A stretch of DNA of 61,969 nt, filler included, from Hausera hauseri (Eukaryota), in assembly GCA_046269625.1 (NCBI GenBank). It is 11 parts of 11 records of this genome, joined end to end, with 100 filler letters (N's around TTAATTAATTAA, not from the genome) between each part and the next. Parts side by side here need not be neighbours in the genome. Positions count along the whole stretch, not along the records: positions 45,093 to 51,218 come from JBJURY010136983.1; 10 more parts are not named here. The stretch is one strand, 5' to 3'. This document shows, piece after piece, positions 5,283-61,969 of the stretch. A model generated the notes under the pieces. It searched no databases. It was not told where the DNA came from and worked only from the letters and a program-made list of their open reading frames with translations. Both the position numbers and the translations under genes were made by a program. Within the stretch, counting starts at the first letter, position 1, and each line of letters begins with the position of its first letter.

Positions 5283-5307
5283 ATTACAATGGTTTCAGAA
5301 GTGGGAT
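5283..5307 (+). promoter_or_regulatory. Relic LTR end plus tRNA-Leu-type primer-binding site
   Basis: ATTACA-A-TGGTTTCAGAAGTGGGAT, one mismatch to the common Gypsy Leu PBS TGGTGTCAGAAGTGGGAT; no intact ORF follows. Confidence 0.55.
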
Positions 5308-5860
5308 TCTAATCTCAAAAGCTGGGATTTCGAAGGGTAAACATCTCAACGTAAATATGCCGTACATAGTGTAAAAGATACCGATGATGTATGGATTCGG
5401 GTTATTCCATGTGACAAAAAGAGCAAAACCTTGCTTCCTTTATTGATGGGTCAATCTGTTAAGCCACAGGCTAAACCCGACAAACCTTCCCCAGTAACAA
5501 ATCTGAGGATACAACATAAGGATTTAAGACTTTCTGCACGTCTACACCTCTAATCAAAGGTGCTTGTGAAGCTGTAAAATGGATCCATGATTCTTTAGTA
5601 GTTATGATCCCGATCAAAACTACAGACGATAAGATAGGTTCAATCGTTTTCAGTCTACTTAAACCTGTAACAAATGACTATGTTGTACCTGATTATTATC
5701 TGGAATTACTAAATCGACGGAACAAGAATTGTCCCTTATTAAATTAATTAAAACAGATACGTCTACAACAGTGTCCGACAAAATTAACAACTTGCAGTCT
5801 GAAAGTCTTTATCGTTAGCGACCACTAGATGTAAACTGGAAATATTATCTCAACAAATAA

Positions 5861-18800: not shown

Positions 18801-19500
18801 AGTGGTAACCACCACTATCGACGAAACAAAGGAGGAGGCTATGAGGAAGGCTAAAGCAGAACAGCAGGTAGGACGAATTATAGGAGTCCGAGATACAGCA
18901 GTATATTTTGAGTACCTACAAACGGATAGAGATAATCAGCAATACGACAAAAATTTAGTAGCGATCGATGGCAGTGCACCTGCTATAACCATACAAAAGC
19001 CTCATGTCGGCAGACCACGGAAAATGCGGGAGAAGATTGACTATAATGGAGACTTAATCAGGGAATTGAGGCCAATGTCTATACCAACGGTTAGCGCGGA
19101 TAATGAGGAACTGAACGAACTGATGAAAGATTTGATACGAGTAGTAAACCACTCTAGCCTCAGCGGTGATATATTGGATGAGAAAGAGAAGGCCATATTA
19201 AATGCCGCCAAGGCCATAAAAAGCCTCTGGTGTAAATTATCCAGAAGTACATTAAGCGATGAAATGATAATTGAGAAAATTATGGTGGAAAATACCACAG
19301 AAGAATTAAGAAAAGTACTGCTATATCTGGCCATCAAAACTAACCCAAATTGAGAAAATAAATTTAACAAGGCTATTAGTTTGGAGAGAAAGGCTGCTAG
19401 AAAAATACCTCGAAAGGTGAACTGGTCTAAATTATTTGAAAAAGAGGAAGTACATCAGAGTGGATTCTTCTTTGATAACACAGATTCGGACACCTGCTAC
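15858..19500 (+). pseudogene. Long helical/coiled-coil accessory polyprotein region of an env-bearing LTR element, broken into several ORFs
   Basis: Consecutive same-strand ORFs 15858-19353; start (NEYEHKLRLMEVYHGLREPET...LLLKITKNR...EINDIYP..FDPKK) is homologous to the region directly after gag at 55295-55837. Confidence 0.65.
18595..18810 (+). other. Internal ubiquitin-like domain (no terminal GG) in ORF 18520-19353
   Basis: ILIKIA...VKDVLPWI...HRLYFRGRILDEMELLIEVGI...NRLVV aligns without gaps to ubiquitin MQIFVK...IENVKAKI...[21 protein letters not shown]...LHLVL. Confidence 0.7.
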
Positions 19501-19536
19501 GAAATGTAACTGGAAATCGCAGAGAAAACGAATCGA

Positions 19537-20643
19537 ATTGGCTAATAAACTTTCTGACCATGATGATGTTGATATGACAAATGGGAGCAGTCAGTGTATG
19601 ACTGTGACAAAAATATTCGTTAATGGACTTGGAAATGTGCGACGATGCGAGGCCCAACAGATTAAAAACAAAAGAGAAAAGTAATATATTATATCAACAA
19701 CGCGAACTAGTTACCTTGGATGGAGTAGAATGTATGTTGCGGCGATCTCGTAGCATTTTCCATTGTGGACTGGTACATGGGCACTTGTCAATAATTAAGC
19801 CAACAACACCACTAATTCCGATAAATTTGGAGAGACAGCATTGTAAGCAAGCTAGAGAAACGGGAAGAATAAAATGGGACGGTATGGAAATGGAAATGCA
19901 GCAAGGTAAAATAATTAGGGTGTACAAAGTGGCAGCAGGCAGACTAGATATGCACACCGGACATTGTCAAGATGCAGAATACGATGCTGGAAAGGGATTA
20001 GAGTCAAACGTCGTGGTAGTAAACTTTTACGAAACCGAAATGCGTATTCAGAAAGTGATGTTTCATAGTGTTACTAAATTTTACACTGAAAATCACAAGT
20101 GCCATATTCAGGATGGCACATGCCCGTTCCGAAGTTCCGTAGTAATTTGGGAACCTCCAGCCAAGACCGATTGCAACTTTATCAGAAATAAAGAACTTAA
20201 GTTCAACGAGACGACAGGAAAACGATATATAAGTAGCATGGAAACTAACTCTAAAACACGAGAAGATGTAGCTGAACAGTCTACACCCACTATACTGATT
20301 TCTGATACTCAAGGATTAAAATTTGTAAAGAAAGCTGTGCTCACCAGATGCGACGTCGTAATGTATGCCACCAACTACGAAGCATTTTTCGTAGCCGAGC
20401 CAGAAATAAACGCCAGAACGTTCAAACTCAAGACTCAGGACATCCGGATCGAAGACTATTTGAAGAACAGAGATGACTATTTCTACTATAAATGACAAGC
20501 CGGAATAGCCGAATTGTATTATAAGATGATAATAAACGACTGCAAATTGGATTTGGAAATCATGAAAACTAAACTAGCTCTAATATATGCAAATTCCGAG
20601 TTGGCATCACCAATAATTCCGATGAAGGAAGGTGTTTTTGGAC
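19537..20643 (+). pseudogene. Chuvirus-like (class III/gB-type) envelope glycoprotein, N-terminal half, copy 1
   Basis: Hydrophobic signal-like WLINFLTMMMLI, then VYDC (19594-19605), ECMLRRSRSIFHCGLVHGH, CKQARETG, CHIQDGTC..VIWE, NDCKLDLEIMKTKLALIYAN; cut by contig end. Confidence 0.75.
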
Positions 20644-21051
20644 NNNNNNNNNNNNNNNNNNNNNNNNNNNNNNNNNNNNNNNNNNNNTTAATTAATTAAN
20701 NNNNNNNNNNNNNNNNNNNNNNNNNNNNNNNNNNNNNNNNNNNGACAGACCGCAGGCCAGGGCTCTGAGCTCCAGCCCAGACGAGGTTCCAGTACCGCGC
20801 CGTCGACGCCGGTTGGAGCCAATACTACTCGAATCAACACCGACGGACTCCAGTTCGGACGACTCTCCGACCCGTCCATGTCGTGCAGCCAGGAACGACC
20901 CGGCACTCTCATCAGCCGACGATTCGTACGCCTCGGCGGACGAAATAATTATTAAACAAAATAAATGTTCGAAATTCTATTTGTTCTTTATTTTGTTCAT
21001 TTTTCTTACGTGTTTTATTTCAATAACCTTGTAAAACACACTCACTAAAGC

Positions 21052-21770
21052 AGGGATCTCGAAAAAGGTTTTGAGAATGAACTCAGTGGAAACCTTTTTA
21101 AAATATGTAAAGCATTGTGCCTGACATGCGCAGATTACGATGCTTCTGAATTACGAGCTGCCACGAAAGGTTTGGGAACAGATGAAGATTCGCTCATTGA
21201 AATCACCTGTACAAGAACGAACGCCCAAATAAAATCCTTCAAACAAGCATATAAACGATGGTATCCAACTCGCGAGTTGGAAAAGGATATTCAGAGTGAA
21301 ACGTCACGTGACTTCAAAAGGTTACTTATTTCATTGCTTCAAAGAACTTGAGACGAAAGCAAAACTTTTGATCCAAATGCGGCAACCCAAGATGCAAAGG
21401 AATTGTATGATTCTGGAGAAAAGAAATGGGTACCGATGAGTCAAAATTCAATCAAATTATTCCAAATCGTTCCAATCCGCATTTACGGGCTGTATTTGAA
21501 GAATACGAAAATTTAAGTAAGAAAACATTGGAAGAAGCTATTAAATCTGAAATGAGTGGTGATGTGAAAAATGCTTATATTACATTTGTCCGATGTGTAC
21601 AAAATAAACCCCGATATTTTGCTTTGGCTCTTCAAAAATCAATGAAAGGACTTGGTACAGACGGTAGAACGTTGTTGAGAATTGTTATAACGCGATGTGA
21701 AATTGACATGGTTCAGATAAAAGCGGCATTTTTATCAGAATTTAATCAAACACTTGGGCGATGGACCAAA
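21052..21770 (+). pseudogene. Annexin fragment (repeats 1-4, intronless, with stop and frameshift)
   Basis: [48 protein letters not shown]; TGA at 21349 and frameshift near 21426. Confidence 0.9.
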
Positions 21771-22379
21771 GGCCTCATTGAGAATATTATCAGTAGCCAA
21801 GTCAAAATCGTTCATTTGAAGCTTATTAGCCCAATTATTCGTCTTTTGAGTTTTTGTCATGATAACAGACATAAATTTCGACAATTTCTTAAGACAAAAG
21901 GAGTGGTTCAAATAATTCTGAAAGAATTATTAGATTCTAAAGCATCAATTCACAAGAAATTAAAATTGTGAATTGAAAAAGATTCCTAATCAGACAGAAG
22001 TTTCTCTGAGATCGTTGACGAAGATGGAGCCGTCGAATTGGAAAACGACGTCTTTCTTTCACAGTTCCAACTGACAGATGCACATAAAGGTAATCCAATA
22101 GTTGTTGCAACATATATTAAACGGTATATGGAAGCTCTAATGACATTTGTCTATACAGATCATTTAGTTTGCCCTCGATTGTTGCACTCATTCGCAAACA
22201 TGCCTGGTGAAACCAGCAACGCGTCTTTGGAACGGCAAACTACGACGAACAGCCAGAGAGACCATCGGCCACCTTGCATTTTCGTGCTCGCCGTGCCGGG
22301 GCGGAGGTCCCGACCGCCAACCCTGCGCCGGTCGATCGGACGGCGCCTTCGGCGTCGGCCCACATTACGCCTTCAGGCG

Positions 22380-27785: not shown

Positions 27786-27993
27786 TGTAACGGTGTTAAT
27801 AAACCATTTGTTTTAAAATTCTATAAATAAGGGTCTTCGATCAGTATACTTCCTGTATCGGAACTTAACATAGAATTAACTAAGTGGCGGCAACCCACAG
27901 ATTACTGTATAAGTAAATAAAGTTTAGGTTTGAGGTCGAATGACACAAACCATCCTCGATCTCTAAAACGTAACACTGGTGTCTCAAGTGAGG
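27786..27993 (+). repeat. Short LTR (27786-27975) plus PBS of a second Gypsy family
   Basis: TGTAACG...CGTAACA near-inverted ends, internal AATAAA, then TGGTGTCTCAAGTGAG (Leu-like PBS) and a gag relic. Confidence 0.55.
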
Positions 27994-28138
27994 AGGCCCT
28001 CTGGCGTATCATCTACGAAGTAGAAAGAACACTATTAAGACAAATTCAGCAAGAAGCCCATCCGATCCTGGAACAAAAATTCCCCAAATGTCCAGTTCTG
28101 CTTTAGATGCTAGCTTAGATTATAACCTAAGTGGCACA

Positions 28139-28750
28139 ATGGCTTTCCTATAGACAAGTTCAAAGGAAAACCAAATCGGGATTACAGTGAGTTTCTGATT
28201 CAATGCGAGATGTATTTTGAAAGTTTTGAATGTACAAATGATCTAAGGATAAAGCGTCTTCCATTTTATCTCAAAAAATATCCCTCAGTGCTTACGCTCA
28301 AGCTGAATATGAGAACAAAGCTGATTGGGCTAACCTTAAAGAGGCCCTGAAAGAAAGGCTCTTAGTAGATCCATCAGGAAAAGGTCTAATTGAAGAATTC
28401 AACAAGAGCCGTAAAGCAAAGGTAAAACATTGCAAGAGTATGTATGTGCCCTTCAGGAACTGGATTAGAGAGCTTTTGTAGATGATGACGTAAAAGATGA
28501 TGCTCTCCTAGCTCAATTATATTACGACGTTAAGAGATAAATTCAAAATTATATTACCGTTGCTGATTCTGACACTTTTAAAGAAGTTGTCAAAAAAACT
28601 AGAAAGATAGAAGTTAATTATGAAAGGCTTGAAAATGCAGACAAACTTCCCAGCAATGATGAGAAGAAACAGAACAAATTTCAACAGAAGAAAAATCTTC
28701 AAAAACCGTTTCAAAAATTCCAAGAATCATCCAGAACAACAGCAGAGGAA
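28139..28750 (+). pseudogene. Gypsy gag relic
   Basis: FPIDKFKGKPNRDYSEFLIQCEMYF...IKRLPFYLK, DWANLKEALKERL, EYVCALQELG; frameshifted. Confidence 0.6.
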
Positions 28751-28759
28751 TGGAATTTT

Positions 28760-30760
28760 TCAGCACCAACTTCAAAACTCTTCAATGAGGAAGCCAATGG
28801 AACGTCATAGATCGTACTTGTCGACATTCAATTTTAAAATGGCACATATTGCAGGCACTTACAATCGTGTTGCCGATTTGTGTCAAGATCAGTTAACATC
28901 ATTATAGTTACTCAGATTCTTTCATGAACAGTGCTTCAGCAAAAAGTACCAGCACAGGATATTCTTAAATCCCTTAAATCACACCAAATCATCGACGAAA
29001 TTGCATATGACACTTCTAAACCCGGTAATTATAAACCCATACTATCTTCCTCTTTGCAGAAAACGGCATTTTATAGTTTGTATTCTCTTCATCATCCGGG
29101 TGCTAAAGCAACTTTCCGTCTCTTGCAACGAATCGTCATATGACCGTCGATGAGATCAGACGTATACGCGTGGATTAGGGCGTATGTCACATGCCAAAAG
29201 TTTAAAATTAACAAACATCTAAAGCCACCACTTTATCATTTCCCCTGTACGTCGTGTTTCAAATGCGTACATATTGACCTAGTCGGCTCTCTTCGTCCAG
29301 ATAACGGTCGTCAATTCATACGGCCATCAACGGCCACCGTGCTTCTCGATGACCAGAGACCATTCCAATGCGCTCCACCAACACAGACACAATCACTGAG
29401 GTCTTTATCAAAACTTGGATTAGCAGATTTGACTCACCTCTCTTCATATTCACGGACCATGGTCAACAGTTAAAGTAAAGTTTTTCTAAATCCTTATTCA
29501 ATCGCTTGAGGATTAAGCACATACACATTTTTCCATATCATCCCCAAGTTAACGGCTTACTAGAAAGATTTCATCGCGCAATGAAGACCTCACTGAAAAT
29601 CCTTGCTGAATCACACAGCAACTGGACAACTCTATTAACTCTTGTCCTGCTGAGCTAACGAAACACACCCTCCACCATTACGGGTTGTGCATCAGCTGAG
29701 GCATTGTTTGGGACACCTATTCGGGCACTTTATGACTTAACTGATTTAGACGACACACCAACAGATGAGTTAATTCGAAATGCCCAAAATCACTTCGTTG
29801 CATTAAACAGGAACTCATTTTGCAAAATTGTAAATAATAACAAATCAAATATACCAGATCATTTATACGCCGCTAAATTTGTCTGGCTTGATAATCCTTC
29901 ACACCGTGGTTTTTAACCGCAATACATTGCACCGTTCAAACTACTCTCTTTACCCTCTCATACGGCAACGATTCTTAAAAATGGCAACAAACAGACTATA
30001 CATCGAACAAACATAAAACCTGCTTTCTTTGTTGATTATCTTTCTGAAGACACACGATCCAACACCAACACTACTGGCACTTTTCCTGATGCCTTTGCCG
30101 CTAATTAACTTTTAACCAATTTAACTATTCACACACCACCTCCATTTGAAGGCAAAGTTTCTCTCGATTCTTCGATTTCAAATTCTCAATTGCCTTCAAA
30201 TATTCAACCTTCTTCAAGTACCTGCCTTTCAGACTCGGCTCCTCTCCATATCCTCCATAAACTTTCTTCATATGCCGGATCTCCCACCAAGCCTCAATTC
30301 TTCGCACCTTCTCCACATTTTCTATCTTCATCACCCTTGGCTGACTTTGCTTTGCAAATTTCATTTTCCACAACTAAAACAAATTCCATGGTAAATTCAG
30401 ATACTTATTTCTCAACTTACACCTCTGCAAGCAAACTCAAAATACGCAAGCAAAACACGCAGAGTTACCTTTATTAAGTACAGTGGAGAACAAAATTTCG
30501 ACAAAGTACAACGTCTGATGTAGACTGAAACCGAGTAGGACACAAACATTTTTCTTGTTTTGCGGATTTTGTTTTTCATTGCTTTTCGCTTTACAGTTTT
30601 CACTTTGCAACGGGGAAGTGATGTGGTGCCAACATGATGTATTGCCCCGTGTCCCATTTTGGCCGGATGCAACCAGGTGAGACGCTTTTGCGCGATGTCG
30701 TCAATGGCTCTTGAATTTCATCTTCCGTCGCGGACTCATGCCGTAAGACGGTATGTACAA
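28760..30760 (+). mobile_element. CsRn1-like RNase H end-integrase-PPT-start of 3' LTR, decayed
   Basis: HIAGTYNRVAD; HHPGAKAT..CQKFK; VHIDLVG; PYHPQVNGLLERFHR; PPT GGGGAAGTGA 30612-30621 then TGTGGTG; homologous to 45093-46446. Confidence 0.8.
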
Positions 30761-30784
30761 AATTACTGTTTTATAATTGCAAAT

Positions 30785-31507
30785 AACGTGCAAATTAATG
30801 AAGTGATTGAGCAGATAGGAATGAAAATTAATGTGCTGCCACCGGTCGTTGAATCAGAGAAGATAAAAGATGTAATAATTGATCATAAATATCATAGTCG
30901 GTTGATAGGTGCTAATGGAACTAGAATTCGTAATATTCGTCAACAATATCCAGATGTAATGATAACATTTACAGAATTATCATTGAATAGTGATATTGTA
31001 CAATTACGTGGACCACGATAACAAGTTGACAATGTTACTAAATCACTGAAGAAAATTTATCAAGAATTTGTGGATAATAATTATACAAGTTATGTACGGA
31101 CATTTAAACAATTCCATCGGAATATTGTTGGGAAAGAAGGGCAAAATATTAGTAAATTACGTGAGGAATTATCAATTCGAATTGATTTACAAAATGAACA
31201 ATCAGATAGTGACTTGATACGTTTAATTGGTAAACAACAATCTGTTGATGAAACTGTAACACAAATTAAACAAATACAGTCAGAATTAATTTCTATTCGT
31301 GAAGATTCGGTGACAATTTCTCATAATCTTCATGAATTATTAATTGGTCAATATGAACAAATAATTCGATCTATACAACAAGAATGTGGTGGAGTTATTA
31401 TACAATTTCCATTATCAGGAAATGTTATTAAAATTCGTGGACCTGATAATGATGTTGAAAATGCTAAACAGCGATTAATGGAATTAGCAAATGAAATAAT
31501 TTGTTAA
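30785..31507 (+). pseudogene. Vigilin (HDLBP)-like KH-domain fragment, intronless, in-frame stop
   Basis: Three KH repeats: HSRLIGANGTRIRNIRQQY, FHRNIVGKEGQNISKLREE, HELLIG..IRSIQQECGGVIIQFP..IRGP; TAA at 31019. Confidence 0.8.
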
Positions 31508-31899: not shown

Positions 31900-33655
31900 C
31901 AAGTCCTATAGATAGATATTAGTATTCATTGCAACTATCAGAAAAATGGCAACACTGTGGTATATATAGTCATACGTCGGAAATTAGTCTGTTCACACCA
32001 TTTAGGCAATTGAAACATTGCCAAGAAGCAATAAATTATGGACGATATGTATAGGATGAATCAACTATAGACATTCAAGTTGGCGATTTACGAACATTCT
32101 TAAAGTATAAAGAAGGCACTATAGATGCATCAGGAAACTCTGCGGCAAGCGATGGAGGAAGAGGAAAAAATACATATTCAAAGATTTATTGCCAAACTAA
32201 AAGTTGCTAAGTTTATTTTTGATAGCACCACTAATACAATGGTAGATGCTCCATTCTTCATATATACAGCAGAATCGTGTCGAGTTAAGACAGAATTATT
32301 ATATTGGACAACCAATCAAAAACAAAGTGACTGTCAATTAGCTTTAATCACAAAAGGCATATTCAATGTTACAACAGGATATCGGTAACACAAAGGCATG
32401 AATAAGATTTTAACAGACGCATCAGTAAGAAAAATACCAGAAATAACTATATCCATAGTATATTGGTCCAGTAATGTATCTGAAGGAATGAAATTTATTA
32501 GACAAGAAGCAGTTGTAATGTGTGATACAACATTACGGAGAACAAATTATCCAATCTTCTTTATCTCTCAAGATTCTGCAAAGCAGGTGAAACTTTTGAA
32601 GATAAGATTCAATATTTAGATCTTTAGTCATATATCATAAATTGTGATTATTATTTATATTTTATTACTACAAAAAATGTACATGAAATGTACTCGGAAG
32701 TAATCGAGAATGATTGCAGATTAAACTAAGAAATACTGGAAACAAAGCTAGCATTAATAAAATTAAATCCAGATGTGATGACACCAGCATTACCATTATT
32801 GGAAGGAATGTTAGGAAGAGTTAATGGAGAAATTCTACAACATTCAAATGCGAAAAAATAAAAGCAAACTTAGCAGTAGATAGGAAAATAGTGAGTACTT
32901 GTACGGCTGAAATACCAGTAACAATTAATGGCGAAACAAAATATGCGTCACCAAGAACGCGAATCTTACTACCAAAGCAAACTAAACTAACCATCATTCA
33001 GAACTGCACAGGTTTAGTAAGGCCAATAATAAAATTCAACAATGAAGGACAATGGGTACAACTACCATATGGTACTATAGTAACCACATCAAATAAGATA
33101 ACAATGACAGCATTACAATATGCAGTTGATGTATATCTGTTTCAAGATACGTCGCAAGTTGGATTGTACGGACCGACAGATGTAAGTGCCTTTATTAAGC
33201 AAATATTGTTCCATATAATGAGAAAACAAGAATTTAATCGAGTTGGACATGATGTTCTAATGAGTAAATCTCAAAATAGAGATTATAGTCAACGATAGCA
33301 AACAGTACTGAACCCCAACTAACATGAAGAAGCAGCTAAATGAGTCTTTAAAAAATTATTTGAAAGTTTTCAATGGTTTCGAAATACAGGTACAGGTGTA
33401 TTAGCTATCTACTACATATTAATGTGGATAAAAATAGGACTTACGTCTTGTATCCATGCTTATGGTATACACACGATAACGGGTTGTACAGGGAAAATGG
33501 CAACAGCAACATTTAGACCAATAGGAAAAATCCTTATGGTACATCAAGAACATAAATGTAGAGAAAGAATAGAAAAGCATGTAAATTATGTCCCACCCCA
33601 CAGAAAAAATAAAAAGCCTCCAAAACCTCCAAAAAAGAGCATCAGAATCAGTTAG
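31900..33655 (+). pseudogene. Chuvirus-like envelope glycoprotein, near full length, copy 2
   Basis: HCGIYSH..HCQEAINYG; NDCRLN*EILETKLALIKLNP..GRVNGEI; CTAEIPV..YASPRTRIL..CTG..P..W; C-terminal TM GVLAIYYILMWIKIGLTSCIHAYGIH..G; colinear with copy 1. Confidence 0.8.
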
Positions 33656-36287: not shown

Positions 36288-36499
36288 NNNNNNNNNNNNN
36301 NNNNNNNNNNNNNNNNNNNNNNNNNNNNNNNTTAATTAATTAANNNNNNNNNNNNNNNNNNNNNNNNNNNNNNNNNNNNNNNNNNNNACAGGAAACTACA
36401 TTGGTGTAAGAGGTGGGATTGGATTCATTCTGTGAATAATACCATTTCTAATTCCTCAAAAAATGATTTGAAACGATTTCACCTTATGATTATCAACAG

Positions 36500-38401
36500 T
36501 TTCAACAAATCCGCAAATTGAATAAATTATCCGGTCTGTGTTTTGCCAATTGTACTTTCTGTTACAAAAGTTAGATGATAATGACAATGGAAAAATGTAT
36601 AGTATTGTACTCGAGGAAATTACCAATTTTATCCAAAACTCTTCCAAAGCGAAATCCGATAATTCGGTTGAACATGATTTCAATTCACTGGATATTCATT
36701 TGACTAATGACATTGTGAAATTGATGGATATTCTTTTATTAAGCAGCAATAAGACAGAAATGGACAAATTATTTTATGCACCACCGATTTTGCTTTCCAT
36801 GGACTGTTAATTTCGTTCTCATTGCACTGTACCGAATCTACATTAGAAAAAGAAAACCAGAAATTTGCCCTTTCTTATTTCATCTCATTTGTTGATTACG
36901 ACGTTGACTGTATTGACAAGAAAGCAAATTTTGTCGTTAACTTTGCACCAGGTATTTTTCAGTCATTAACGAAAATCATCACTGCAGATCGGAAAATTGG
37001 ATCTGTTGTCAAAAGCCGAGCGCTGCAATGCGTGGCCAAACTTACGATTTTGCTATACGGTGATGCGTCATTTGCTGGTGGACAAAATCGGCTTATTATT
37101 GATGGATCTTCTCAAGAAAATAACGAACTGGGGAAAATTATCACTACAAGAAATAACGATTGGAAAAACCGATCGTGGCCGTCTGGATTGAAAATTGTGT
37201 TACTGGCGAAAAGTTGTGTAATTGGACCTAGTGATGAAGAACATTGGACGGTGCGCAAAGAATTGTTGAACGGTTTTTCGTTAATTTTATAGCATTGCTC
37301 GAGTGTAGGTCCATCTATAGATGCCTCCATCGACTGTATTATTATGCTCATAGCGGATTACAACATCCGTGTTAGAGTAGCTGCAATGGACTCCATTCAG
37401 TTGGTATCTCAGATGGAATTTTTCATTCCAGTATATCTTGATCCGACGAAGAAAGAGTCGCACATCACTCAGCCAGGGTCATTATTATTGACAACAGCTG
37501 TTTGTAGGAATCTCGACAAGATTTTTTTTGACATGAAGACTGTTTGCAGTAGTTTGACAGACGAATGCAAGTGTCAAATGCTCCAATCGTTGGATTCGTA
37601 CTTCACCGTATTCGTGAATAGAGGTATCGGTCGGTTGAACTACTGCCAAATGAAGCAGACATTAATCTGTTTGATAAAATTGTATTCTCTTGACCATATG
37701 CGTGTAGGCCTGTCGCAAATTACTCCTGTGAATTCTTCAATAACAGATTCAATCATTTCCACATGGACAATGTGTACAGTGCAGTGAAACCAGTAATGGT
37801 GAACCTCTGTAAATTGGCATTTCCATTATCTGTCGTATCATTACTGCGGTTAGAAACCGCTGATATCCCTAACACTTCTAATGTAGTCCTTCTCATGAAA
37901 TTGGCGGAATTGGGAGTAGTAGAAAATGATTCAATTTCATCGGTCGACAAATGCAGCATGTGCCAGATTATTCTGTCGGAATGTTTCCAATGTGACTACG
38001 TGGATTTATCGACATTTCTCAATACGAATGAGTCAGATAAACTCAGTTCACATCCGGCTGCTGGTGCAGTGGCATCAATCGAATACCGTACATCTGCAAT
38101 ACAGCAGCCAATTGTCACAGATACTCAATTGAGTCTTGCAGTAATGAAGAGTAACTCATTAATCATTTCATTGATTATGGAATTGAGTGCATAATGTAGT
38201 TTGTGTATAAGAGGATACATTCCTGACAATGACACCGATAATGTTGACGAGTGCTGGGTAATAGGAACGTGCCTATTTGAAGTAATGAGCAAAGCGTATC
38301 AATCTCCAGAATTCGTCAGTCATGCAGCATTAAGTTGTTTAAAAGTTCTGTCAAGTATTCATCAAAAATACGAGAAATCTATTTATAAACTTGCGGATTA
38401 A
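36500..38401 (+). pseudogene. TTI1: TELO2-interacting protein 1-like, intronless and disrupted
   Basis: FAPGIFQSLTKIITADRKIG and HWTVRKELL match TTI1 FLPGI..LT..ITGD.K.G and HWKVRLELV; several stops and frameshifts across ORFs 36538-38401. Confidence 0.65.
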
Positions 38402-39309
38402 TTCAGACAATAATATGGATGCCAATTGCGATGAGAAATCAGGCAAAAGGAAAATATATTTGAGTAACTTGAAATTTATTATCAAAGGTAGCCTAGGACA
38501 TGCCTATACAGGTACTATGTGTAATTACTTTGAAAATAAGCATTTTTGACAATTTTTGTTTCAGAGTTGTGAAACACACAATAATGCTAATCAGCTTAAT
38601 AAAACTTAAGAAGCATCTACCTATATCTCTCTGTACTTGGAAGTATCATAGCCATGCATAACAAATCAATAAATGGTTTGCCACGAGCACCAAACATTTA
38701 TATTCGAACGACGGAAAATAGTGCTTTCATCAGCTGGAAATTTCGTGGTACAACTGAATGTACGGCACCAAGAATCGGGATTATGTTGAACGGGGCTGAT
38801 CGATTGCAATATGAATCGCTGGAAGATGATGAAAGGGCATGCGCTTCCTGCAAGGCGATGAAGTTAATGCCAAGCAAATTGAATTTAGCAGAAACACATT
38901 TGTCCGTCCGTCCAATCGACGCTCACTTTTACGTGTTGGACTTCGAACTTTCTGGATCAGAGCATCGTAATGATTTAATGGACGTACTGCGAGTCAACAG
39001 CAACCTCACCGATCGGCCGGCAGACGTTCCAGCATCAGAGGCATCCAATCACAAGATGAAGTTCTTTTTGTTGATTCACGCCCGCCAGTGCGACCATTTT
39101 TTGTGCATATACAAATCATTTATGGCCAACACCAATTTTCGTTTTAAAGGGTTTTTAAATTCAATAACTGGATATTCCTTTATCACAATTCTCATTTGCT
39201 ACTATTTCCGCGGCTTTATATCCGAACCTCTACTCAACCGAGAAGGAAACCGTCCAAGCCCCTCATGCATTTCAACGTTTTCCTGGGATTACTCCGCTGC
39301 AACTCCTTC

Positions 39310-40510
39310 CTGGTCTTCAGAAACAATCAACATACGAAAACAATAAGAGCCCCACTCAACGGCACAGCCCAGTTCTTATACAACTCTATCCTCCTCACTC
39401 AACATTTCTGACTTCTATTTTACACATCGAGGTATCACTGTACATCGTGTCAACTCCCTTTGTCTTTCGCATGCCACGAACGTCCAGTCATCCTTCTCAT
39501 GCTCCATTTTCGCTTTGGGGTGGATCGGACTTAAATCCATCTTTCTCGGATGATAAATCCACAAATACATACAATATCTATCGTGTACCAAACTGTCAAC
39601 AAACATGAGCTTGGTTAAATCTACCTTGCGTGGATTTTTTTCTTAATAAAAACAACTCCAGCAAACTATGGTTCCAATTCCATCAACAGTGGCTAAAATC
39701 CAATAACATCACCGACTCCTTTGTGCGAGCCAATAGTCTTTTGATACTTCTGCCTGCCAACATCAAGCAAAAGATCAGTAACATCTCCGAACTGCCCCAA
39801 TTATCGACACCATACGAAACACTGTGAGGCTGTACTTCATATCACGATCCCTCGATAGATCACATTATACGAAAATACTTTAACGATCATGCTATAGGAA
39901 AGCAAAAGCCATCCAATTTTTTCCAAACGGCCATTCTGCAGCATAGCGCTTTAGGAGTAACACCTACGAACAACGCCGATTTAATTTGCCGTTATTTTTG
40001 TCATCTTTGCCTACCTCAATCAGAGCCTTTCTCACCGTTGTCGACGAGTCCACTGCTATCAAAAAAACTGGCCATAATGGCCGACAAATCCTTTAAGATT
40101 CTCCATACCAATAATTCTCTCCCAATTGCGGCTGCAACCACATGTGTTCCAACTACAGACACAACATTATTCACTCAACAATTGTAAATGATGCAGAAAC
40201 AGTTTGACAAGTTACAGCAGTCAATTTCGGCTATTACTACCCAACTAAACAATCTCAATGGGCTCTGATGAAGTAACACCCAATCTTCAAGGCCCCGAAG
40301 CACTTTAAAATACTCGACTCGATCAATTTCACCTGCCGGACGTATGACTCACTTCTTTCACACATTTTCAAAAGGATTCAAGGAAATGCTTTTTGCGCTA
40401 TCGATTCTATAGCGAGCGATACGCTGTGAACAACCCTATTTGCATATACCACAACAAATATCAGTCACAGGCCAGGTCATGTGTGCCTGGTTGTAAACAC
40501 TAAAAAGATA
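39310..40510 (+). mobile_element. Ty3/Gypsy CsRn1-like copy C: UBL-gag, decayed
   Basis: FLVFRNNQHTKTIRA..TAQFLY; ISDFYFTHRG; VILLMLHFR(fs)GGSDLNP (GGSD 39519-39530); FFLNKNNSSKLWFQFHQQWLKSNNITDS; CIYHNKYQSQARSCVPGC. Confidence 0.85.
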
Positions 40511-40877: not shown

Positions 40878-41056
40878 TTTTCTCTGTTTGATAGAAGAAA
40901 TAATTATTAACATCTTTGGCGCCATGCATTAATTAGTATTTTTCTTTCAAGCAAGAAAACACTGTTAGTTAAGATACCGAGAAGTGATAATGTTAACAAA
41001 CGCAATCAAAACAAAGAGTCAATGCAAAACAAATTCCCGTCTGGAGCAACAATAAC

Positions 41057-41765
41057 ATGAATTGTAATAAAACTTCACACGGAAATGAGTGTACGCTTAC
41101 ATTAAATACTGAAAGACAGTTTACTTTAGAATCATATTTTAAAATAGCCATAATTACAACTATTGGAATGTTTGGCGTGGTCTCCAATCTACTAACTTCT
41201 GTTGTTTTCTTCAGACAAGGAATTAAAGACTGTATGAGCATGTGTCTAATGTGTCTCTCCGTGTCTGATTCCGCGTCTATGCTGTTCGGACTTTTGACCG
41301 TGACCTTCAACGTTATGAGGCGCATATATCTAAACATAGATCTTCGACCGTATTACTATGGCATGTACCGGGCATGTGGTATGTTTTACACGGTGTCAGT
41401 ACTAACTACCACATGTATCTCTGTCGAGAGGTGCCTTTGTGTAGCATTTCCGTTTAAATTCAAGAAATCTATGGGGTTTCGAAGAGCCATTCTTGTCAAT
41501 GTCGCCATATATTTATACTCGGTAGGTTCTTCGTTACCATTGTTTATTTCAAGTGGTATACAAACTAAATATGTTCCTTTGGAGAATTCAACGACCATAA
41601 ATTCGTGGAACACTCCAGAAAGATCAGATATGGGACATTTCATCGTGACTGCCTTTCAGTACACAGTAGAACCAGTATGCCTGATTGTCATTCTCATTAG
41701 CGCACACATCATGGTCCTTTGTCTAAGGCGGTCCACACGATTGAGAAGAGAAACTTCTTGCATGA
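41057..41765 (+). pseudogene. Rhodopsin-like (chemosensory/peptide-type) GPCR, TM1-TM5 only
   Basis: GMFGVVSNLL, LSVSD, ISVERCLCVAFP, TM5 PVCLIVILISAHIMV; single exon; TM6-7 replaced by transposon sequence. Confidence 0.85.
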
Positions 41766-43948
41766 AGTTCGACAAGAATCTGGCAAATATAGTTAATCGT
41801 AAACGAAAACGTCAGGATATGGAAGAAAAGACAGTCAGAAAAGATTAAGAAACGAGCTTTAATTTCTACTAGCAGTATACAATTGAACAAATCAGATGAG
41901 GAAAGGGAAATCGATGCTGACATGGATAGCAATGATGACGAGTGTGATGTGAGGGCAAGTGCTTCTCAGCAAAAGAGAAGTCACCTCGAAAAACGCGTGT
42001 AGGAACGGCAGCATTCATTCCTCCAGATATTTTAAAGCGATCCAGACTTGTTTCATTGGTTACGAGGCTAAAGATATCAGCAGCAGATCAAGCATGTTTT
42101 ACAGCAGTTGTAGTAGAAGAAGCTGGAGGAGACATATCGAAAATTTTTTCTGCTGCTAGATCACGTCTTAAAGTTGTTGAACAAATTGATAGCAAATATA
42201 AAGAGTTGACCCCTCCAAGGCTTGCAACGTTACACTGGGACTCGAAAATAATGAATAGTTTAAGTAACAGAAATGTAACAGAAGAGCGGTTTGTTGTTAT
42301 GGTTGGCGATGTAGACAATTTACAGTTACTGGGAATCCCTTACTGTCCAATTGGTGGTAGTGGCTCTTCTTGAAACATTTTCAAACTTGAGCTGCAACTT
42401 GTTCACTTCTAGGCGTTGCAGTGATTCTATTGTAAACATGACTTTCGATACCACTGCGTCTAACACGGGACACATCAACTTCCTGTGTTTGTATTGAGAT
42501 TGAGTTAAAGAAATCTCTTTGGTCTGCTTTTAGACATCATGTTGGGGAAGTGCAGCTGTCACACGTTTTTGCTGATCGCAATATTGAAGCGTCTAGATTC
42601 CCGGATATTCAAAATTTTAGCAGATTTTGTAAGCACTTTCACAAACTACCACAATTGTACAAACTATCGCAACTGGCAAGATTTGACGTGCAAATGCACA
42701 GCGATGAAGCTCGGCAATTGCTGGAACAATGTCGGCTGAAAGTTTTTGAGACTTTAAGTCAGGTGTTACAGTTCAAAAGAGATAACTGCAAAGAGTTCAT
42801 AGAGCTATGTTATGTGTTCTTGAACGCAGCAAGTGATAAATTTGTCACCTTCAAAAGACCCGGAGCAATCCACAGAGCAAGGCGAATGTCAAAGATGTCA
42901 TATTCAATTAAGATGTGCTTGTTGTAAGAAGAATTATAGAAAGAAGCAAACAGCACCATTGTAACCCAGCAACAAATAAAGAATCTCAAAGAATTTGTTT
43001 TGTTTACAACTGTCATTTACAGCTGGTGGTGGCTGATATGCGGTTCTGCTGCTGATGCTACTTGGAATGATTTACAGCTTCACCACCAAATTTTGAGGTA
43101 TGAAGCGACCAACTCCAAGGTGTCAAAGAGTACATTTCGTGCCCTTAGTCGACATCGATGTTATTTCACTGAGGAAATGATTCCACTTGTAGTATTTAGC
43201 ACTCGTGTATCGGCTATGGATAAACACCAGTTGGCTGATAAACTTCTAGCCTTGAAACCAGAATTTCATGACAAAATGCCGCATAAACGTTTTGGTTCTG
43301 GTTACGGAAAACCGAAGTTTCCTCATGAAGTATCAATATCAACAACACTTGCAGATTTAGCAGGCGACGATTCCCGGTTCACATTTAGTTGCTCGCATCT
43401 AGAGCCTAGATGCTTGACCCAGCTCAGAGGCCTATCAAGAATCGTTTGCAAGTCTGCAAGCTACAAACGTTGTAAATGATGAGGCCGAACAAGACGTGAA
43501 GCTGAGTGATGACTGTGTTCAAGGCCCTAAGGAAGAATATTACCAGAACATTCTGCAAGTTATAGACGCAAGTCGCAAGCAAGATCCTTGTTTTCGAAAG
43601 AGAAAGCAACGCGGCACTCAGTTAAAAATCTGGTACACGTTTGATTTACTACATGAAGCTGGTCTAATAAACATCGCACTTGTGTTTTTTAAATTATTTC
43701 TGCATTTTTAATTAAACGTCTGTAGTACAGTTACAGAAAAAATGTTTCGTGTCATGACTTGTATTATGATAAGCTTATTTTCCATGCTGAATACAGATGC
43801 AAAACTTTGACTTCGAAGTGGACCCATTAAACTGTGAAATAAATTTGAAAAACTTTAGTCAGATGTTTAGTACAATAAAAGTAAGAAATCAAATTTGAGG
43901 ACATGCGGGTTCCAAAAAATATTTTCAGTGGGCGTTTGATGCACCCTA
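41765..43948 (+). mobile_element. hAT-superfamily-like (hATm-type) DNA transposon, 5'-truncated and decayed
   Basis: LHWDSK..ERFVV..LLGIP, TFDTTASNTG, AFRHH, RPGAIHRARRMSK, YFTEEMIPL; right terminus CACCCTA at 43942-43948 (reverse complement of TAGGGTG). Confidence 0.75.
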
Positions 43949-45092: not shown

Positions 45093-46446
45093 CTACGGAG
45101 CACAAATACTGACACGATAGCTGATACTTTTATTCGTACGTGGATTAGTAGATTCGGATCCCCTCGTTACATCATCTCGGATCAAGGTTCTCAATTCGAA
45201 TCAAATCTGTTTGAATCTCTAGTGAACCGATTAGGTATAAATCATACTCATACTACACCCTATCATCCTCAATCAAATGGCCTACTCGAACGTTTCCACC
45301 GAACCTTGAAAACATCACTTCGGATCCATGCGCAGTCAAACACCAATTGGACAACACTTCTACCGTTTGTCCTGCTCGGTAGGCGAAACACTGCGTCCGC
45401 TTCCACAGGATGCTCGCCTACCGAAACCTTATTTGGAACACCTGTTCGCTCCTTGTTCGAATTAACCACACTAGATAATACACCTACAAACGAAAAGATC
45501 AAAGCAGCACATGACCATTTCATTGAAGTCTGTAAAGACTCATTCTGTAGAATACTACACAACAATGAAACATATTTACATGACGACTTGTATTCTGCAC
45601 AGTTCGTTTACCTACGAAATCAAACACCGTTTGGTTTTCAACCGCAGTATCTAGGGCCATATAAGCTAATTCCTCTGCATTCTCACAACGCGATAATCCT
45701 TAAGGAGGGAAAGGAATTACCAGTTCTTATAAATAATGTAAAACCCGACTTTTTTGTAGATCACACCTCTCCCACCGAAACTTCGACAAATTTTCTGGCT
45801 CCTACATCTCCTTCTGTTCCTGCTGCTGACTCTACACCTACACCGTTACTAGAATTTACTCCTCAAACTTCTTCCACTAATCTCCCAATTTTTCCTCCTC
45901 TTTCTGCTACATTTTCACTTATAGCCCCTTCTTCGTCTCTGAACGATATACCAAATTCAACGACGAAATCTGACAGTTTTGCCTCCACCAACTTGTCAAC
46001 CAGATTTAACAATACAAAAAAATACAAATCGGTCACGTTCAGTACCTATAGTAGAGTTCTCAATACTTATGGAATACAACGACTTGTACATACGAGGACC
46101 ACATAGCTCAAACTATTTCGTTCTACGTTCGCTTACTATTTCTTTTATCCTCAGAGTTCCCAATTCAGCCACGGGGGGTATTGTAGTGCCATCATCTTTT
46201 TCATTTATTATCGTCGTATACTCTGATGTCATAATCTTCACATTCATTACTGCACATTTTCGTTCTTTTGTTCTGATAAACCTGACTATGAAATTGTCGA
46301 AATTTACCACCGGCCTATTTCTACGCCTTCTGTTCCGTTCACTGCCGACATGCAGAAATAATTTGCATATAATCAAGAATATTTATAGTTCGACCATACT
46401 CCAATAACTTAGTAACTGTTTCGGTAAATTACCCTCGGATATTACA
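45093..46446 (+). mobile_element. CsRn1-like integrase (45093-46106), PPT and 3' LTR (46182-46446)
   Basis: WISRFGSP..SDQGSQFES, TTPYHPQSNGLLERFHRTLK, PQYLGPY; PPT GGGGGG at 46173-46178; LTR TGTAGT...ATTACA. Confidence 0.85.
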
Positions 46447-47448
46447 ACCTCGCCTTCTTTTTGCGATCGAAATTTATTGACTCGCAAAATTCCTTTAACA
46501 AAATCACCGAACAATTTTTATAGCTTTCTATACAGTTTTCTGTTGTGAAGCTGAATGTATCTCAATGACGATAGTGAAACAGTAAATCCAACATTTTCAA
46601 TAAAATCCAAAAAACTTCATAAAAATTAACCAAAACGGATGTATCAATGATTAACAAGCCAGATACTTTTCAGGAATTTTTTTAAACCTAAAAAATCACT
46701 GTTACAACCAAATATGCAATATACTTTGCATGGAACATTTTTGACATATCTTGACACATTCTTTAGTTTTCCAACTCCATAATTTATCTGAATATTAATG
46801 ACCTTTGATTCCTCGATTTCTGGTTTGCCTGTCACTTGAAAAAAACGGTTTTATCATACTAAACAGTATTGAATTCGAAAACGATAATTAACATGTATAC
46901 TATTTAAAAAAAAGAAATATTCCAATTTCTGTAGTGTTAGGCATAAACTTTCGGCCTTGGTCAAAATTGCTATAGATTGCAGTTTATATAAATTTTTTTA
47001 ATCCGATTTAAAATATATATATGTGAAATGGCTATGGCAATGCAAAGTATTTCATAAACAGTCATCGGGGGGTTTTGGAATGATTGCCGAATTGTGACAA
47101 ATAAATAGCTGAATGTTGTTTTAATATTCAGCAGATAACAACGTCCACACTTTTAAATTGAACATTTTAAAAACTTAAAAAATATTGATTAGTGATTTGT
47201 TTCCATTCATGATTGCAATTTGAATTGTTTTTTTGAATATAAAATTTTATCATTCTCCGAAATTTATGGACTGCATGTATATGTATCTACTGGAGACGTA
47301 TAAATCCCCTTTTATTGTAGCAATACTGGAGTGCTATATATCGTTCACAGGGGTCGATTGACGCACTCCGAATACCCTGGTATTAATTCAAAATTATATC
47401 TGTTTAATTTCTATCAGATACACCAAAGACTAAATCGTTCGAACAGCA

Positions 47449-47928
47449 GTGACAATTACGTATCCCATATACAAGAATTATATGGTGCTTTGGGATCGAT
47501 TACTATACACAACAATTATGGACTATGATGATTTAGCTGTTGCACTACAAGAAATATCACAAGATTCTTACGCTGACATTTTATTGGGCTATTTAAATCA
47601 TAAAATGCCCGAGGTTAAAATGGAAGCAGTTGTTCTTATCGGAAAATTTTTTGAATATGTAAAATTGGATTCTTCCAACGAAGAAACCTTGAGTCAGTTT
47701 CTTAAAGAACTTGACAAACTTCGCAAAGATGATCCTTTGAATGTTCAAAACGTTATACGTACTGCTATTGAAGCTGCACTGAGATGTTTTCAGAATAGCT
47801 TTACGAATTTTTATCTCGAAAATCTCGATTCACACAGTAAGAGTAAAATCGTTATTAAGAAAACACGAAAAGTAAAATTTCCGCTTCTTCTGAAACACCA
47901 CGTTCAGTGGTTGCAAACTAAAGGTTAA
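47449..47928 (+). CDS. HEAT/TOG-repeat-like fragment
   Basis: LLGYLNHKMPEVKMEAVVLIGKFF...LDKLRKDDPLNVQNVIRTAI resembles TOG-domain HEAT repeats; isolated fragment. Confidence 0.35.
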   Translation: MTITYPIYKNYMVLWDRLLYTTIMDYDDLAVALQEISQDSYADILLGYLNHKMPEVKMEAVVLIGKFFEYVKLDSSNEETLSQFLKELDKLRKDDPLNVQNVIRTAIEAALRCFQNSFTNFYLENLDSHSKSKIVIKKTRKVKFPLLLKHHVQWLQTKG

Positions 47929-48026
47929 AAGGAAGAGATATCCACAGAGCCATACAAAAAAAAGTTCAATCGAATGATATTAATTATAGTACGGAGTATT
48001 GTGATTTTATTCGAACAGGAAACGAA

Positions 48027-51000
48027 ATGAATACGGAAAATGTAGGATCCATAATGGCTATGGAATTAGAACATGCCGAAATATCGACTGCAAGGTTGAA
48101 TAAGACGAAAAATCAACCTTATCTTCGAACGTTGGAAAATATTCCAACTGCCATGATCAAAAATATAACGAACAGTAAAAAAATTGATAAATCTCCATTC
48201 AAGGAATTTGATACGTATATAACAAACGATGGTCACTCAGTTGCTAATCCTTTCGGTCCAGGAACAATAATGGGAGCCAGGGTTACTTCGGATAGTTCGG
48301 GAATGTTTCGTGTGCATTATCTAAATTTGAACTGTGTGATACAGTCGAGTTATTCTTTGAGTAACAATGTGTATTACAAATTTTTATTTTTCAACGTCAA
48401 AACAACGTTTTATAATCTGGAACCAGTGTCGTTTGGTTTGTCCAGAAAAATATATTCATCGGAACGTTTCCTTCCAAACAATTTTGTTAATATATCAAGT
48501 CCTAGAATAGTCATTAGCAAGGGTAAGATAGCATGCAATAATCGATTCAGTTATCAATTAGCACTATCTTTTAAGAAGTTGAAGACAGAAATTTCTGTTG
48601 GATTGTATCTTTATGATACTAGTTTCATGGAGATTTTTGTGGATAAAATTAGTGTTGGACGAGTCGTATTAGAATTTAACCAAAATAGTTATCTGTTGGT
48701 AAATCTCAGAAGTTGGTACAATACGATTTTGGTTGAAGAAATGTCACCGAGACCCCCCATTTGTTGTAGCCTGGCTCTGTTAAGATGTACATTACCTAAA
48801 CGGCACAGTGATATGGTACCCTTTGACGATGACAATTCAACTCACATTTTGAGGTTACATAGTAATTCTGATAATTTACAACGACCTGATAACGCACATT
48901 ACCTGTCATTAGAATCAACCACATTACGTCCATCCGTCAACATAAATTCTAATCGCACATGTTACCAATGTAACAAACCCGGCCATGGTGTGCGGAACTG
49001 TATAGGAAAACGCACAGCGATGAACGCCAGACAACGGTCACAGCGTTTCTCATCGTTATCTTGGCCATTGCATTACAAACCATCCGTCATACTGAACACT
49101 GCCTATCTTCATCCTGAACCAAATATCGACCCGTCATCGAAAGTCAATGATGGATATCTTAACATGAAGTCGTTCAATGCCTACGTCGATGACTTGTCCA
49201 TCAAGCCCATTTATATAGTATCCGGTGACCAGACAGTCATTATTTCCATGTGCGTTATGAAGGGCGACAAAATTGTCGTGAAACTTGATCATTTGTTCAA
49301 GAACGGTCCGAGGGATGACCTTTACGGATTTCTCACGGACCAAATGGCCGCGAACTTCATTCATGCGTACGAGTCGTCAGTGGTGACATCGCATAATAAT
49401 CGACGGTGGAAACAGAATTCGACACCAGTCACCAATATCTACGCCGGAGTAATGGGAATAGAGCCTAACCAAAGTCCGGTTATCGTAGTTTCTATTTGCT
49501 ATTACAATTTGGTTGCATTTGTTACTCGTCCCTCTTGGCAGTATAACTTTCGCCATTTGCCTTTTATGATTCCATACACTTTCTGTTGCCTAAGACTTTT
49601 AATATACAATCAATATCCAACGAAGGCGTTCGTTGCTGATACATTTTGCACTTATTTCGACACGACTTTCACCTCCGTTGCGATTCTAGATCATTTGAGC
49701 AAAACACTTCTTTTCTTTAATCCTCAGATGACAAATTTCGTCTATTCCATTCAAACGTTCTTTCTCTTTATTCCTTGTCCACGACATAGTTTCTCGAGAT
49801 ATCTCGCACTCGCAATATTTTTTGAACTTCATAGTGATCACATAGATATTAAGGAAGTGGTCCAGGCATCTCATTTTCTTGAGTTGCAAACAATCCATGG
49901 CATAATAAACCAATCAACCTTCTGTACTACATCAATGAGTCCCACGCCATGGTGTGTTTCTTCACCACACCAACCACTTGAGTTTACACCGACTATATCT
50001 TTTTCATTCTTTCTAAACAATCACCATTTACTGACGCATAGAATGACAAATTCGATAGATGCATCCTACCTACATAACTACGTACTACACGTCGCCAACC
50101 TCTCCGATTTTTATCTTACGTACAATAATCTACCAATAACTAACACCAATCTCAATAGCTTTTCTGTACCTTCAACCCATTGCATCGTCATTCACATACA
50201 CATTCGCTTACGTGGTGGAATGGAATCATCACCTACCATTAACACTACTGACCGAAATACCTCCAAAACATCACATTTGGCGTTCAACCAAAAATCGTCG
50301 ATCGTTACCACGCCATCTTCTTTCAGTAGTTATGCTTCTACAACCTCGCCAGTCAAACACACTTCTCAATGCACAGAGTACTTTATTGACCACGAACAGT
50401 CTAACAAAACGTGGCTTAGCTTCCACAAACTCTGGCTGCAATCAAACAATATTACTGATCCGGTAACCAAGGCCCATAACTTGCTTTGTCTTCTTCCAAC
50501 AACGGTAAAATCGGCAATTCACGATTTTCTCGATATCTTCCAGAAACCTGATCCATACACGCATCTTTAAAACGCAGTTTTGAAATTTACGGAACCATCT
50601 ATGGAATCAATAATTCACCGTTTCTTCAACGACAATGCAATGGGGGAGCAGAAACCATCTGATTTTATAAGAACGTCACTCGTGCAACTCCAAACATTTG
50701 GCGTGACGAAACAACATAACGCCGACCTTTTGCGACGTTACTTCCTGAATGCATTGCACATACAAATTAGGGCCTTACTTACTGTCGTTGAAGAGTCGAC
50801 AATATTAGATAAATTAGCCGAACTGGCGTATAAAACATATGACGTTTTGAACGTACACACTCAACCAGTTATTTCTGCAGCAGTTACTACCAAAAATGTT
50901 TCACTCGAACAACAGTTAAACGAATTACGCGCCGCAAATGCTGCACTCCATAACACTATCAACTCTATCAATGATAAATCGAATAATCTTTCTTTACAGC

Positions 51001-51218
51001 GTAGTAATGTACTTTCGTCTAATCGAACACGTTCTTATTCCAGAAATCAAACACCTTCACCTACGAGGTCACTCGTATGCTATTACCACACCAAATTTAG
51101 TAGCAACGCAAATAAGTGTTGCTTAGGGTGTAAATATTATCCGCCAAATCTAGATTCAAGTAATATAATTTGCGTCTATCATTCAAAATTCGGTCCTAAT
51201 GCTAGGAGTTGTATTACT
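48027..51218 (+). mobile_element. Ty3/Gypsy CsRn1-like copy D: long polyprotein [unknown-CCHC-BTB-like?-UBL-GG|Gag], one in-frame stop at 50568
   Basis: 847-aa ORF and ORF 50580 share a frame; CYQCNKPGHGVRNC 48960-49001; RLRGG|ME 50205-50225; gag with CYYHTKFSSNANKCCLGC and CVYHSKFGPNARSC. Confidence 0.85.
49992..50219 (+). other. Ubiquitin-like domain with RLRGG terminus (copy D, uninterrupted)
   Basis: 76 aa TISFSFFL-NNHHLLTHRM-TNSIDASYLHNYVLHV-ANLSDFYLTYNNLPI-...-VIHIHIRLRGG; beta-beta-alpha-beta-beta-beta pattern and exact ubiquitin C-terminal RLRGG. Confidence 0.75.
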
Positions 51219-61861: not shown

Positions 61862-61969
61862 AACTGGAAAGCCAGTCTTCTTTGGGCCATTCCAGCATTT
61901 CTGGGCAAAATCTCGCACTTTACAAATTTTGGAAAATGCCCAGAACCTGGATGAGTCACGGGGCCATAC

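Follow-up and report, generated by a model that had tools for sequence, protein, structure and literature searches.

A broken CsRn1-like gypsy Gag of Hausera hauseri is preceded in frame by a putative ubiquitin-like domain and a mosaic leader with a decayed DPAGT1 fragment

The window (the whole stretch of 61,969 nucleotides analyzed here) consists of 11 contigs of invertebrate DNA joined by N-padded TTAATTAATTAA linkers, and its domain content is animal-like (FN3/Ig, annexin, TTI1, KH, and GPCR). It contains four related Gag copies, A to D, each on its own contig, with copy A on the minus strand. Stops or frameshifts are present in all four, and none has a linked reverse transcriptase (RT). 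The proteins of copies B and D are 55% identical. Protease-like ORFs were found downstream of Gag in copies A and B, and weak DUF7041 scores were obtained for the public relative P0001 (E 0.012) and for copy B (E 0.083). No contig in the window carries both ends of one element. The features of copy D, which is located on contig 9 (45093-51218), and of the regions upstream of copies B and C are listed in Table 1.

Table 1. Features of copy D and its contig and of the regions upstream of copies B and C (window positions)
Feature	Position	Strand	Remarks
Annexin coding piece, copy B leader	21049..21770	+	Uninterrupted; one stop, one frameshift; 3' half (from 21411) in Gag frame
NCKAP1-like piece, copy B leader (tentative)	22035..22214	+	Gag frame; PDB E 0.02; Pfam Nckap1 E 0.07
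ACTACA (LTR-end-like), then 18-nt PBS-like site	36388..36419	+	Start of copy C's contig
TTI1 pseudogene, 5' of copy C	36420..38420	+	Several stops and frameshifts; ends read by eye
247-codon ORF, copy C leader	38603..39346	+	Frame of copy C's UBL body, one stop between
3' end of a comparably C-rich gypsy element	45093..46447	+	Integrase, purine tract 46173-46181, LTR-like stretch TGTAGT from 46182; end near 46447 guessed; no PBS after
164-codon ORF, HEAT-repeat character	47434..47928	+	Pfam HEAT-type E 0.004-0.07; abuts the long ORF in a different frame; host-like composition
Uninterrupted 882-codon frame (stop to stop)	47922..50570	+	Earliest ATG at 48027; spans the mosaic leader, the putative UBL, and N-terminal Gag
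Leader 5' block, 311 open codons	48027..48959	+	Host-like composition, GC3 0.32, no C-skew; weak SPRY/NHR-domain lead only
CCHC zinc knuckle CX2CX4HX4C	48960..49001	+	Type differs from the element's own CHCC knuckles
Weak alpha-actinin C-terminal EF-hand resemblance	49143..49319	+	PDB phmmer E 1.2; no Pfam match; lead only
DPAGT1/ALG7 fragment of host	49425..49802	+	Decayed but in frame; truncated on both sides; matches human residues 183-308
S/T/P-rich linker	49803..49994	+	Contains ATG 49935
Putative ubiquitin-like domain (UBL), 75 aa	49995..50219	+	Ends RLRGG (50205-50219)
Gag	50220..51218	+	CX2HX9CX3C knuckle 51078-51131; second knuckle 51171-51212 cut by contig end

Copy D encodes a gypsy Gag of the CsRn1-like type, broken by one in-frame stop. 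Its first knuckle has the CX2HX9CX3C (CHCC) pattern, which the accessible part of PMC2582038 gives as the signature of CsRn1-like gypsy Gag. The original prediction, that the frame upstream of the UBL is open for 655 codons (48027-49991), was borne out: the Gag frame has no stop in this stretch versus 44 and 55 in the other plus-strand frames, and 40.7 stops would be expected (P about 5e-19). The polyprotein, on the other hand, is not intact in copy D, in which Gag is broken by an in-frame TAA (50568-50570) and the contig ends at 51218. Beyond this TAA, Gag is open and conserved for a further 216 codons. The same aligned Gag codon is a stop in copy C (about 39828). The ATG at 49935 is a possible alternative start, from which UBL-Gag could be translated without the leader.

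Two Gag relatives were found among 2431 candidates. None with a long leader was present among 8000 long candidates, which is weak evidence. No relatives were detected in bacterial or archaeal genomes, where only the bacterial half of the public protein P0002 matched.

In copy D, the C-terminal di-glycine of the putative UBL lies in an RxRGG-like context. Gag is preceded by R(L/I)RGG, RLLGG, or LIRGG in copies D, B, and A and in P0001, and by WGG in copy C. An AlphaFold model based on a six-row alignment (pLDDT 65) has strands E3-9 and E12-19, helix H25-36, strands E41-45 and E48-50, and helix H52-58, with the last strand unplaced. This strand-strand-helix-strand-strand-helix order and its spacing fit those of ubiquitin. 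The putative UBL had no match in Pfam or PDB sequences, and the domain of P0001 had none in the Atlas. Fold searches with the model lacking the last strand yielded nothing significant, with no ubiquitin among the matches listed. When the UBL bodies were compared in 15 pairs, only 2 scored better than shuffles. Judged from the modeled topology and the RLRGG end, a ubiquitin-like fold of the 75-aa domain is plausible.

The stretch upstream of the copy D UBL is a mosaic rather than a single gene. The composition of the leader fits a mosaic, since it shifts stepwise (GC3 0.32, 0.53, and 0.39). The stretch had been described as AT-rich, but its GC content of 0.39 equals that of UBL-Gag, and only the 5' block (the first 311 codons) is lower, at 0.35. 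For residues 35-320 of copy D, the Atlas provided a SPRY/NHR-like lead (score 0.90-0.91; 139-152 shared features), which we treat as a lead only. Residues 35-340 had no match among 1098 short candidate proteins, and nothing useful was found for them in PDB, Pfam, NCBIfam, PHROGs, or plasmids. A single-sequence fold of this segment had a pLDDT of 29 and was left unused. The extra CCHC knuckle located before Gag was confirmed at exactly the predicted position (Pfam zf-CCHC E 9e-4 on a 25-aa piece); a CX2CX4HX4C-type motif arose in 9 of 20000 shuffles. The word YVDD at residues 419-422 could have been an RT motif, but this idea was abandoned because no profile supported it.

One block of the copy D leader was firmly identified. 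A protein search against 1.84 billion representatives (E up to 0.001) gave 466 matches, of which 150 were listed. All 150 fall on residues about 500-630 of copy D, and one of four that were examined is named DPAGT1-like. In PDB, this region matched human DPAGT1 residues 183-308 at E 2.6e-26. Residues 20-480 had no similar protein among short proteins or the 150 matches listed (of 466). Since its flanks failed to match the DPAGT1 profile, the piece is cut at both ends, and it comprises 126 aa versus about 400 aa in the full enzyme.

For comparison with homologs, we aligned the 73 of the 150 listed proteins that are 330-520 aa long; 77 were excluded by length. The fragment has kept 24 of the 37 columns conserved at 90%, whereas the homologs have a median of 36 and a minimum of 29 (n = 73). 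At a threshold of 97%, it keeps 20 of 26 columns, and one homolog is equally low. Its profile score is 125 bits versus a minimum of 197 for the homologs, which are themselves part of that profile. Furthermore, it is the longest tip in the DPAGT1 tree (1.17, the next being 0.62). Part of this divergence may reflect the rate of the host, because the host's own DPAGT1 is absent from the comparison. A real exon was also considered and rejected, since the piece has lost conserved residues and its end lacks a good donor site.

The base composition of the fragment resembles that of the element. Its GC skew is -0.25 and that of Gag is -0.24, while -0.01 +/- 0.05 would be expected for the homolog proteins under host codon use, which was taken from titin-like exons in the window. 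It has 2 Gly residues versus a homolog mean of 8.9. The element-like skew suggests long residence in a replicating element. We also simulated neutral change, with substitutions only and no frameshifts. For the DPAGT1 piece alone, the probability of retaining no stop was 0.08-0.24, a weak test on its own; for all 655 codons, it was at most 0.016 at an assumed change of at least 10%.

The piece thus shows homology to the family and is neither full length nor in possession of the full set of conserved residues expected of a functional enzyme. The original prediction spoke of accessory genes; the one firmly identified piece of copy D instead derives from a housekeeping membrane enzyme and is both truncated and decayed. 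That a functional protein is released from the N terminus and serves the element is highly improbable. Such a role would suit the 311 open 5' codons, the intact CCHC knuckle, and the SPRY/NHR-like Atlas lead, but not the enzyme fragment, nor the finding that no leader sequence is common to the copies. Adoption by the host as a chimeric gene in the style of maize Bs1, with leader, UBL, and N-terminal Gag expressed and the stop at 50568 as the new end, is highly improbable. It would account for the 882 open codons and for the host-like composition of the 5' block; against it stand the open, conserved Gag past that stop, the loss of conserved enzyme residues, and residues 20-480, for which the above searches gave no similar protein.

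The other copies have different leaders. As predicted, the regions 5' of copies A, B, C, and D are mutually dissimilar (best tblastx E 0.33). The annexin piece of copy B comprises about 240 codons, and the UBL-Gag frame of this copy can be followed upstream as far as 21411; over these 324 codons it has 2 stops, versus 18 and 26 in the other frames. This stop density resembles that of its own UBL-Gag (3 stops in 392 codons). Upstream of copy C, TTI1 was recognized by Pfam TPR_TTI1_N (E 2e-12 at 36753-37289). None of the searches identified the leader ORF of copy A or that of copy C. In three of the four copies (B, C, and D), the UBL frame is open over the 250 codons that lead up to the UBL body, with 2, 3, and 0 stops, respectively, versus 10-19 in the other frames; copy A is frameshifted too heavily for its leader frame to be judged.

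The host pieces named beside elements in the window (DPAGT1, annexin, NCKAP1-like, TTI1, and vigilin) are sense to the element in 5 of 5 cases. No intron splits the annexin, DPAGT1, or vigilin piece, whereas GT-AG introns are present in a host-type gene of the window. The degree of interruption differs: stops and frameshifts are absent from the DPAGT1 fragment, occur once each in the annexin piece, and occur several times in TTI1. Of the swappable cargo that had been proposed upstream of the UBL, different host-derived sense coding pieces were thus found, and the label of accessory genes was not upheld. On the reading favored here, the leader pieces look like passengers acquired separately by each lineage, not like working accessory genes.

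Joining of unrelated coding fragments in contigs, by assembly or amplification, is quite unlikely to explain these leaders. The contigs are short and the mosaics abrupt, and false joins do occur: in P0002 (L001, 6001-6597), the N-half is of the Bacteroidota DUF5777 type (82% to a Cyclobacteriaceae MAG) and is joined in frame at mid-Gag to the C-half of this Gag, and P0002 is probably an assembly chimera. False joining, however, would explain neither why three copies are biased toward sense, in-frame pieces nor why the DPAGT1 piece has lost conserved residues and has an element-like skew.

We also searched for LTR ends and primer binding sites (PBS). An LTR or PBS just upstream of the UBL, which would make the upstream ORFs flanking DNA or assembly chimeras, was found at no copy. 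The broader statement that a 5' LTR/PBS is lacking at every copy held for D, B, and A; copy C has an LTR-end/PBS-like site 3 kb upstream of its UBL and not adjacent to it. This motif is not a chance match, since a second site is present at 5290 (3 mismatches; 0.04 expected). The site at 5290, on contig 2, lies before a titin-like gene that has introns, and on contig 6 a similar site precedes a different gag. The motif upstream of copy C looks like the tRNA-Leu type. According to the accessible part of PMC2582038, CsRn1-like elements have a tRNA-Trp PBS, so the site of copy C may belong to another family. Leu and Ser PBS are described for Mag elements in the accessible part of PMC3286476.

Two further PBS candidates, TGGTGAC at 49381 and TGGTGA at about 22206, were rejected, because the match is short, no LTR end precedes it, and it lies inside coding sequence. 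The contig of copy A starts with ATATTACA (4168-4176, minus strand), which resembles the LTR-end candidates, with no PBS after it. On contig 9, integrase occupies 45093-46106, and comparison of the LTR-like stretch at 46182 with the tested regions gave nothing above shuffles (best score 79, shuffle maximum 78).

The PBS-like sites bear on another explanation, in which an LTR family with a Leu-type PBS copied host mRNAs together with this Gag RNA into a chimera. UBL-Gag itself would then be a passenger, and the shared frame would be due to luck and to the choice of the longest ORF in the original prediction. We consider this unlikely. PBS-like sites do precede TTI1 on contig 7 and the titin-like gene on contig 2, and on contig 6 one precedes an unrelated gag that runs into an integrase of the same type and vigilin. 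Sense multi-gene chimeras are on record in PMC5131818. Such copying leaves unexplained, however, why a heavily decayed, composition-shifted DPAGT1 piece has no stop or frameshift. The annexin and NCKAP1-like pieces of copy B and the ORF of copy C are in frame too, for which the chance is about (1/3)^3 given sense orientation.

The window also contains other elements and genes. At 5278-5860, TGTGGTATTACA and a PBS-like 18-mer are followed by frameshifted FN3-like sequence leading into the open, intron-containing titin-like gene (5861-11614). The region 27787-31504 is a one-strand mosaic. It has an LTR-like stretch of about 190 bp (TGTAAC...GTAACA) and a PBS-like site, followed by a decayed gag from a different family, an integrase piece that shares 66% identity with the one of contig 9, and a vigilin KH fragment with one stop. 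Related elements with gag-like ORFs and DNA matches of 67-77% are located at 15858-20643 and 51319-55837. On contig 4, 19608-20495 is a glycoprotein/env-like ORF, and another of this kind was recognized by eye at 32825-33298. Decayed ORFs at 13553-14820 resemble a Polinton-type DNA polymerase B region, as judged by eye. An uninterrupted ORF for a rhodopsin-type GPCR (40997-41848; Pfam 7tm_1, E 1e-9) is followed by decayed transposase-like ORFs (41948-43479, by eye). On the minus strand, 55938-61969 is a non-LTR element with ORFs of 375 and 1132 aa and poly(A) at its 3' junction, flanked by partial U2 snRNA matches (61785-61861 and 55933-56041). It resembles a U2-targeting element of the Keno kind.

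For copy D, we consider it on balance probable that ORF1 took up pieces of host mRNA, which stayed open only so that Gag could be translated, as passengers ahead of a predicted cleavable UBL. Co-packaged host mRNAs would have been copied into the element by template switching of the reverse transcriptase. Insertions in ORF1 would persist in a replicating lineage only when the frame reaches Gag. The predicted UBL, if cut after RLRGG by host deubiquitinases, would give Gag a normal N terminus whatever precedes it, and the passenger would then be purged of stops but otherwise free to drift, both in sequence and in composition. For the DPAGT1 piece, host mRNA as the source and selection on the frame only are likely, and a position inside the LTRs is presumed. 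The piece was likely tolerated, since the predicted UBL between it and Gag would allow its removal. A broader version, in which a fixed, host-cleaved UBL makes the start of ORF1 a landing pad for serial host mRNA pieces in this gypsy lineage, is possible and rather doubtful. In that case, older pieces would lie nearest the UBL and would be carried in frame over many replication cycles with Gag unharmed.

Maize Bs1 is reportedly a single family, in contrast to the different cargo of each copy here; its host pieces reportedly follow Gag, and we know of no processing signal in it. PMC7264820 cites Bs1 as an LTR element into which sequences of several host genes have been taken up. That LTR elements capture host genes is already known (PMC5131818; Bs1 cited in PMC7264820). 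In animals, LTR-mediated retrocopies arise by template switching and consist of partial sense host mRNA pieces, sometimes of several genes, within LTR-element sequence (PMC5131818); multi-gene cases that are in frame are a precedent for the present leaders. As far as that part of Tan et al. 2016 (PMC5131818) describes them, such retrocopies replace part of the ORFs, whereas here the pieces precede an otherwise complete Gag, in frame. Sense, partial mRNA pieces joined to LTR-element sequence are what we found here as well.

Ubiquitin inserts of pestiviruses are cut by host hydrolases, which leaves the protein behind them with its usual N terminus, as proposed here for Gag. The accessible part of PMC2850149 places ubiquitin or UBL inserts of cytopathic pestiviruses before NS3. 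The elements described here share with them a ubiquitin-like unit (putative here) at the N terminus of a viral protein. The pestivirus inserts differ in that they concern an RNA virus and are recent, recognizable host ubiquitin, whereas the putative domain described here is a fixed feature of the family and has diverged strongly.

CsRn1, PwRn1, and AgCR, as far as the accessible part of PMC2582038 describes them, share with our copies the CHCC Gag knuckle and a protease-like ORF after Gag, as in copies A and B; the weak DUF7041 scores are a further point of agreement. The present copies differ from CsRn1-like elements in that the knuckle is doubled and that a long leader and an RGG-ended domain precede Gag. 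A tRNA-Trp PBS was looked for without success, and no convincing PBS was found at copies D, A, and B. The elements are CsRn1-like, yet we do not file them as members of the CsRn1 clade. In the literature covered, which took in subscription papers and repeat databases thinly, we found no report of a ubiquitin-like domain on a retrotransposon Gag, nor of in-frame, copy-specific cargo before an RGG domain and Gag.

Gene capture by LTR elements is usually crippling. A processing signal before Gag would permit translated host fragments and element function together and would be a route to accessory genes and to chimeric host genes. If the pieces are passengers, selection on the reading frame and none on the amino acids is predicted. 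If the start of ORF1 is truly a landing pad, the element would act as a mobile device for exon shuffling, and the N-terminal products that it releases would be open to recruitment by the element or the host.
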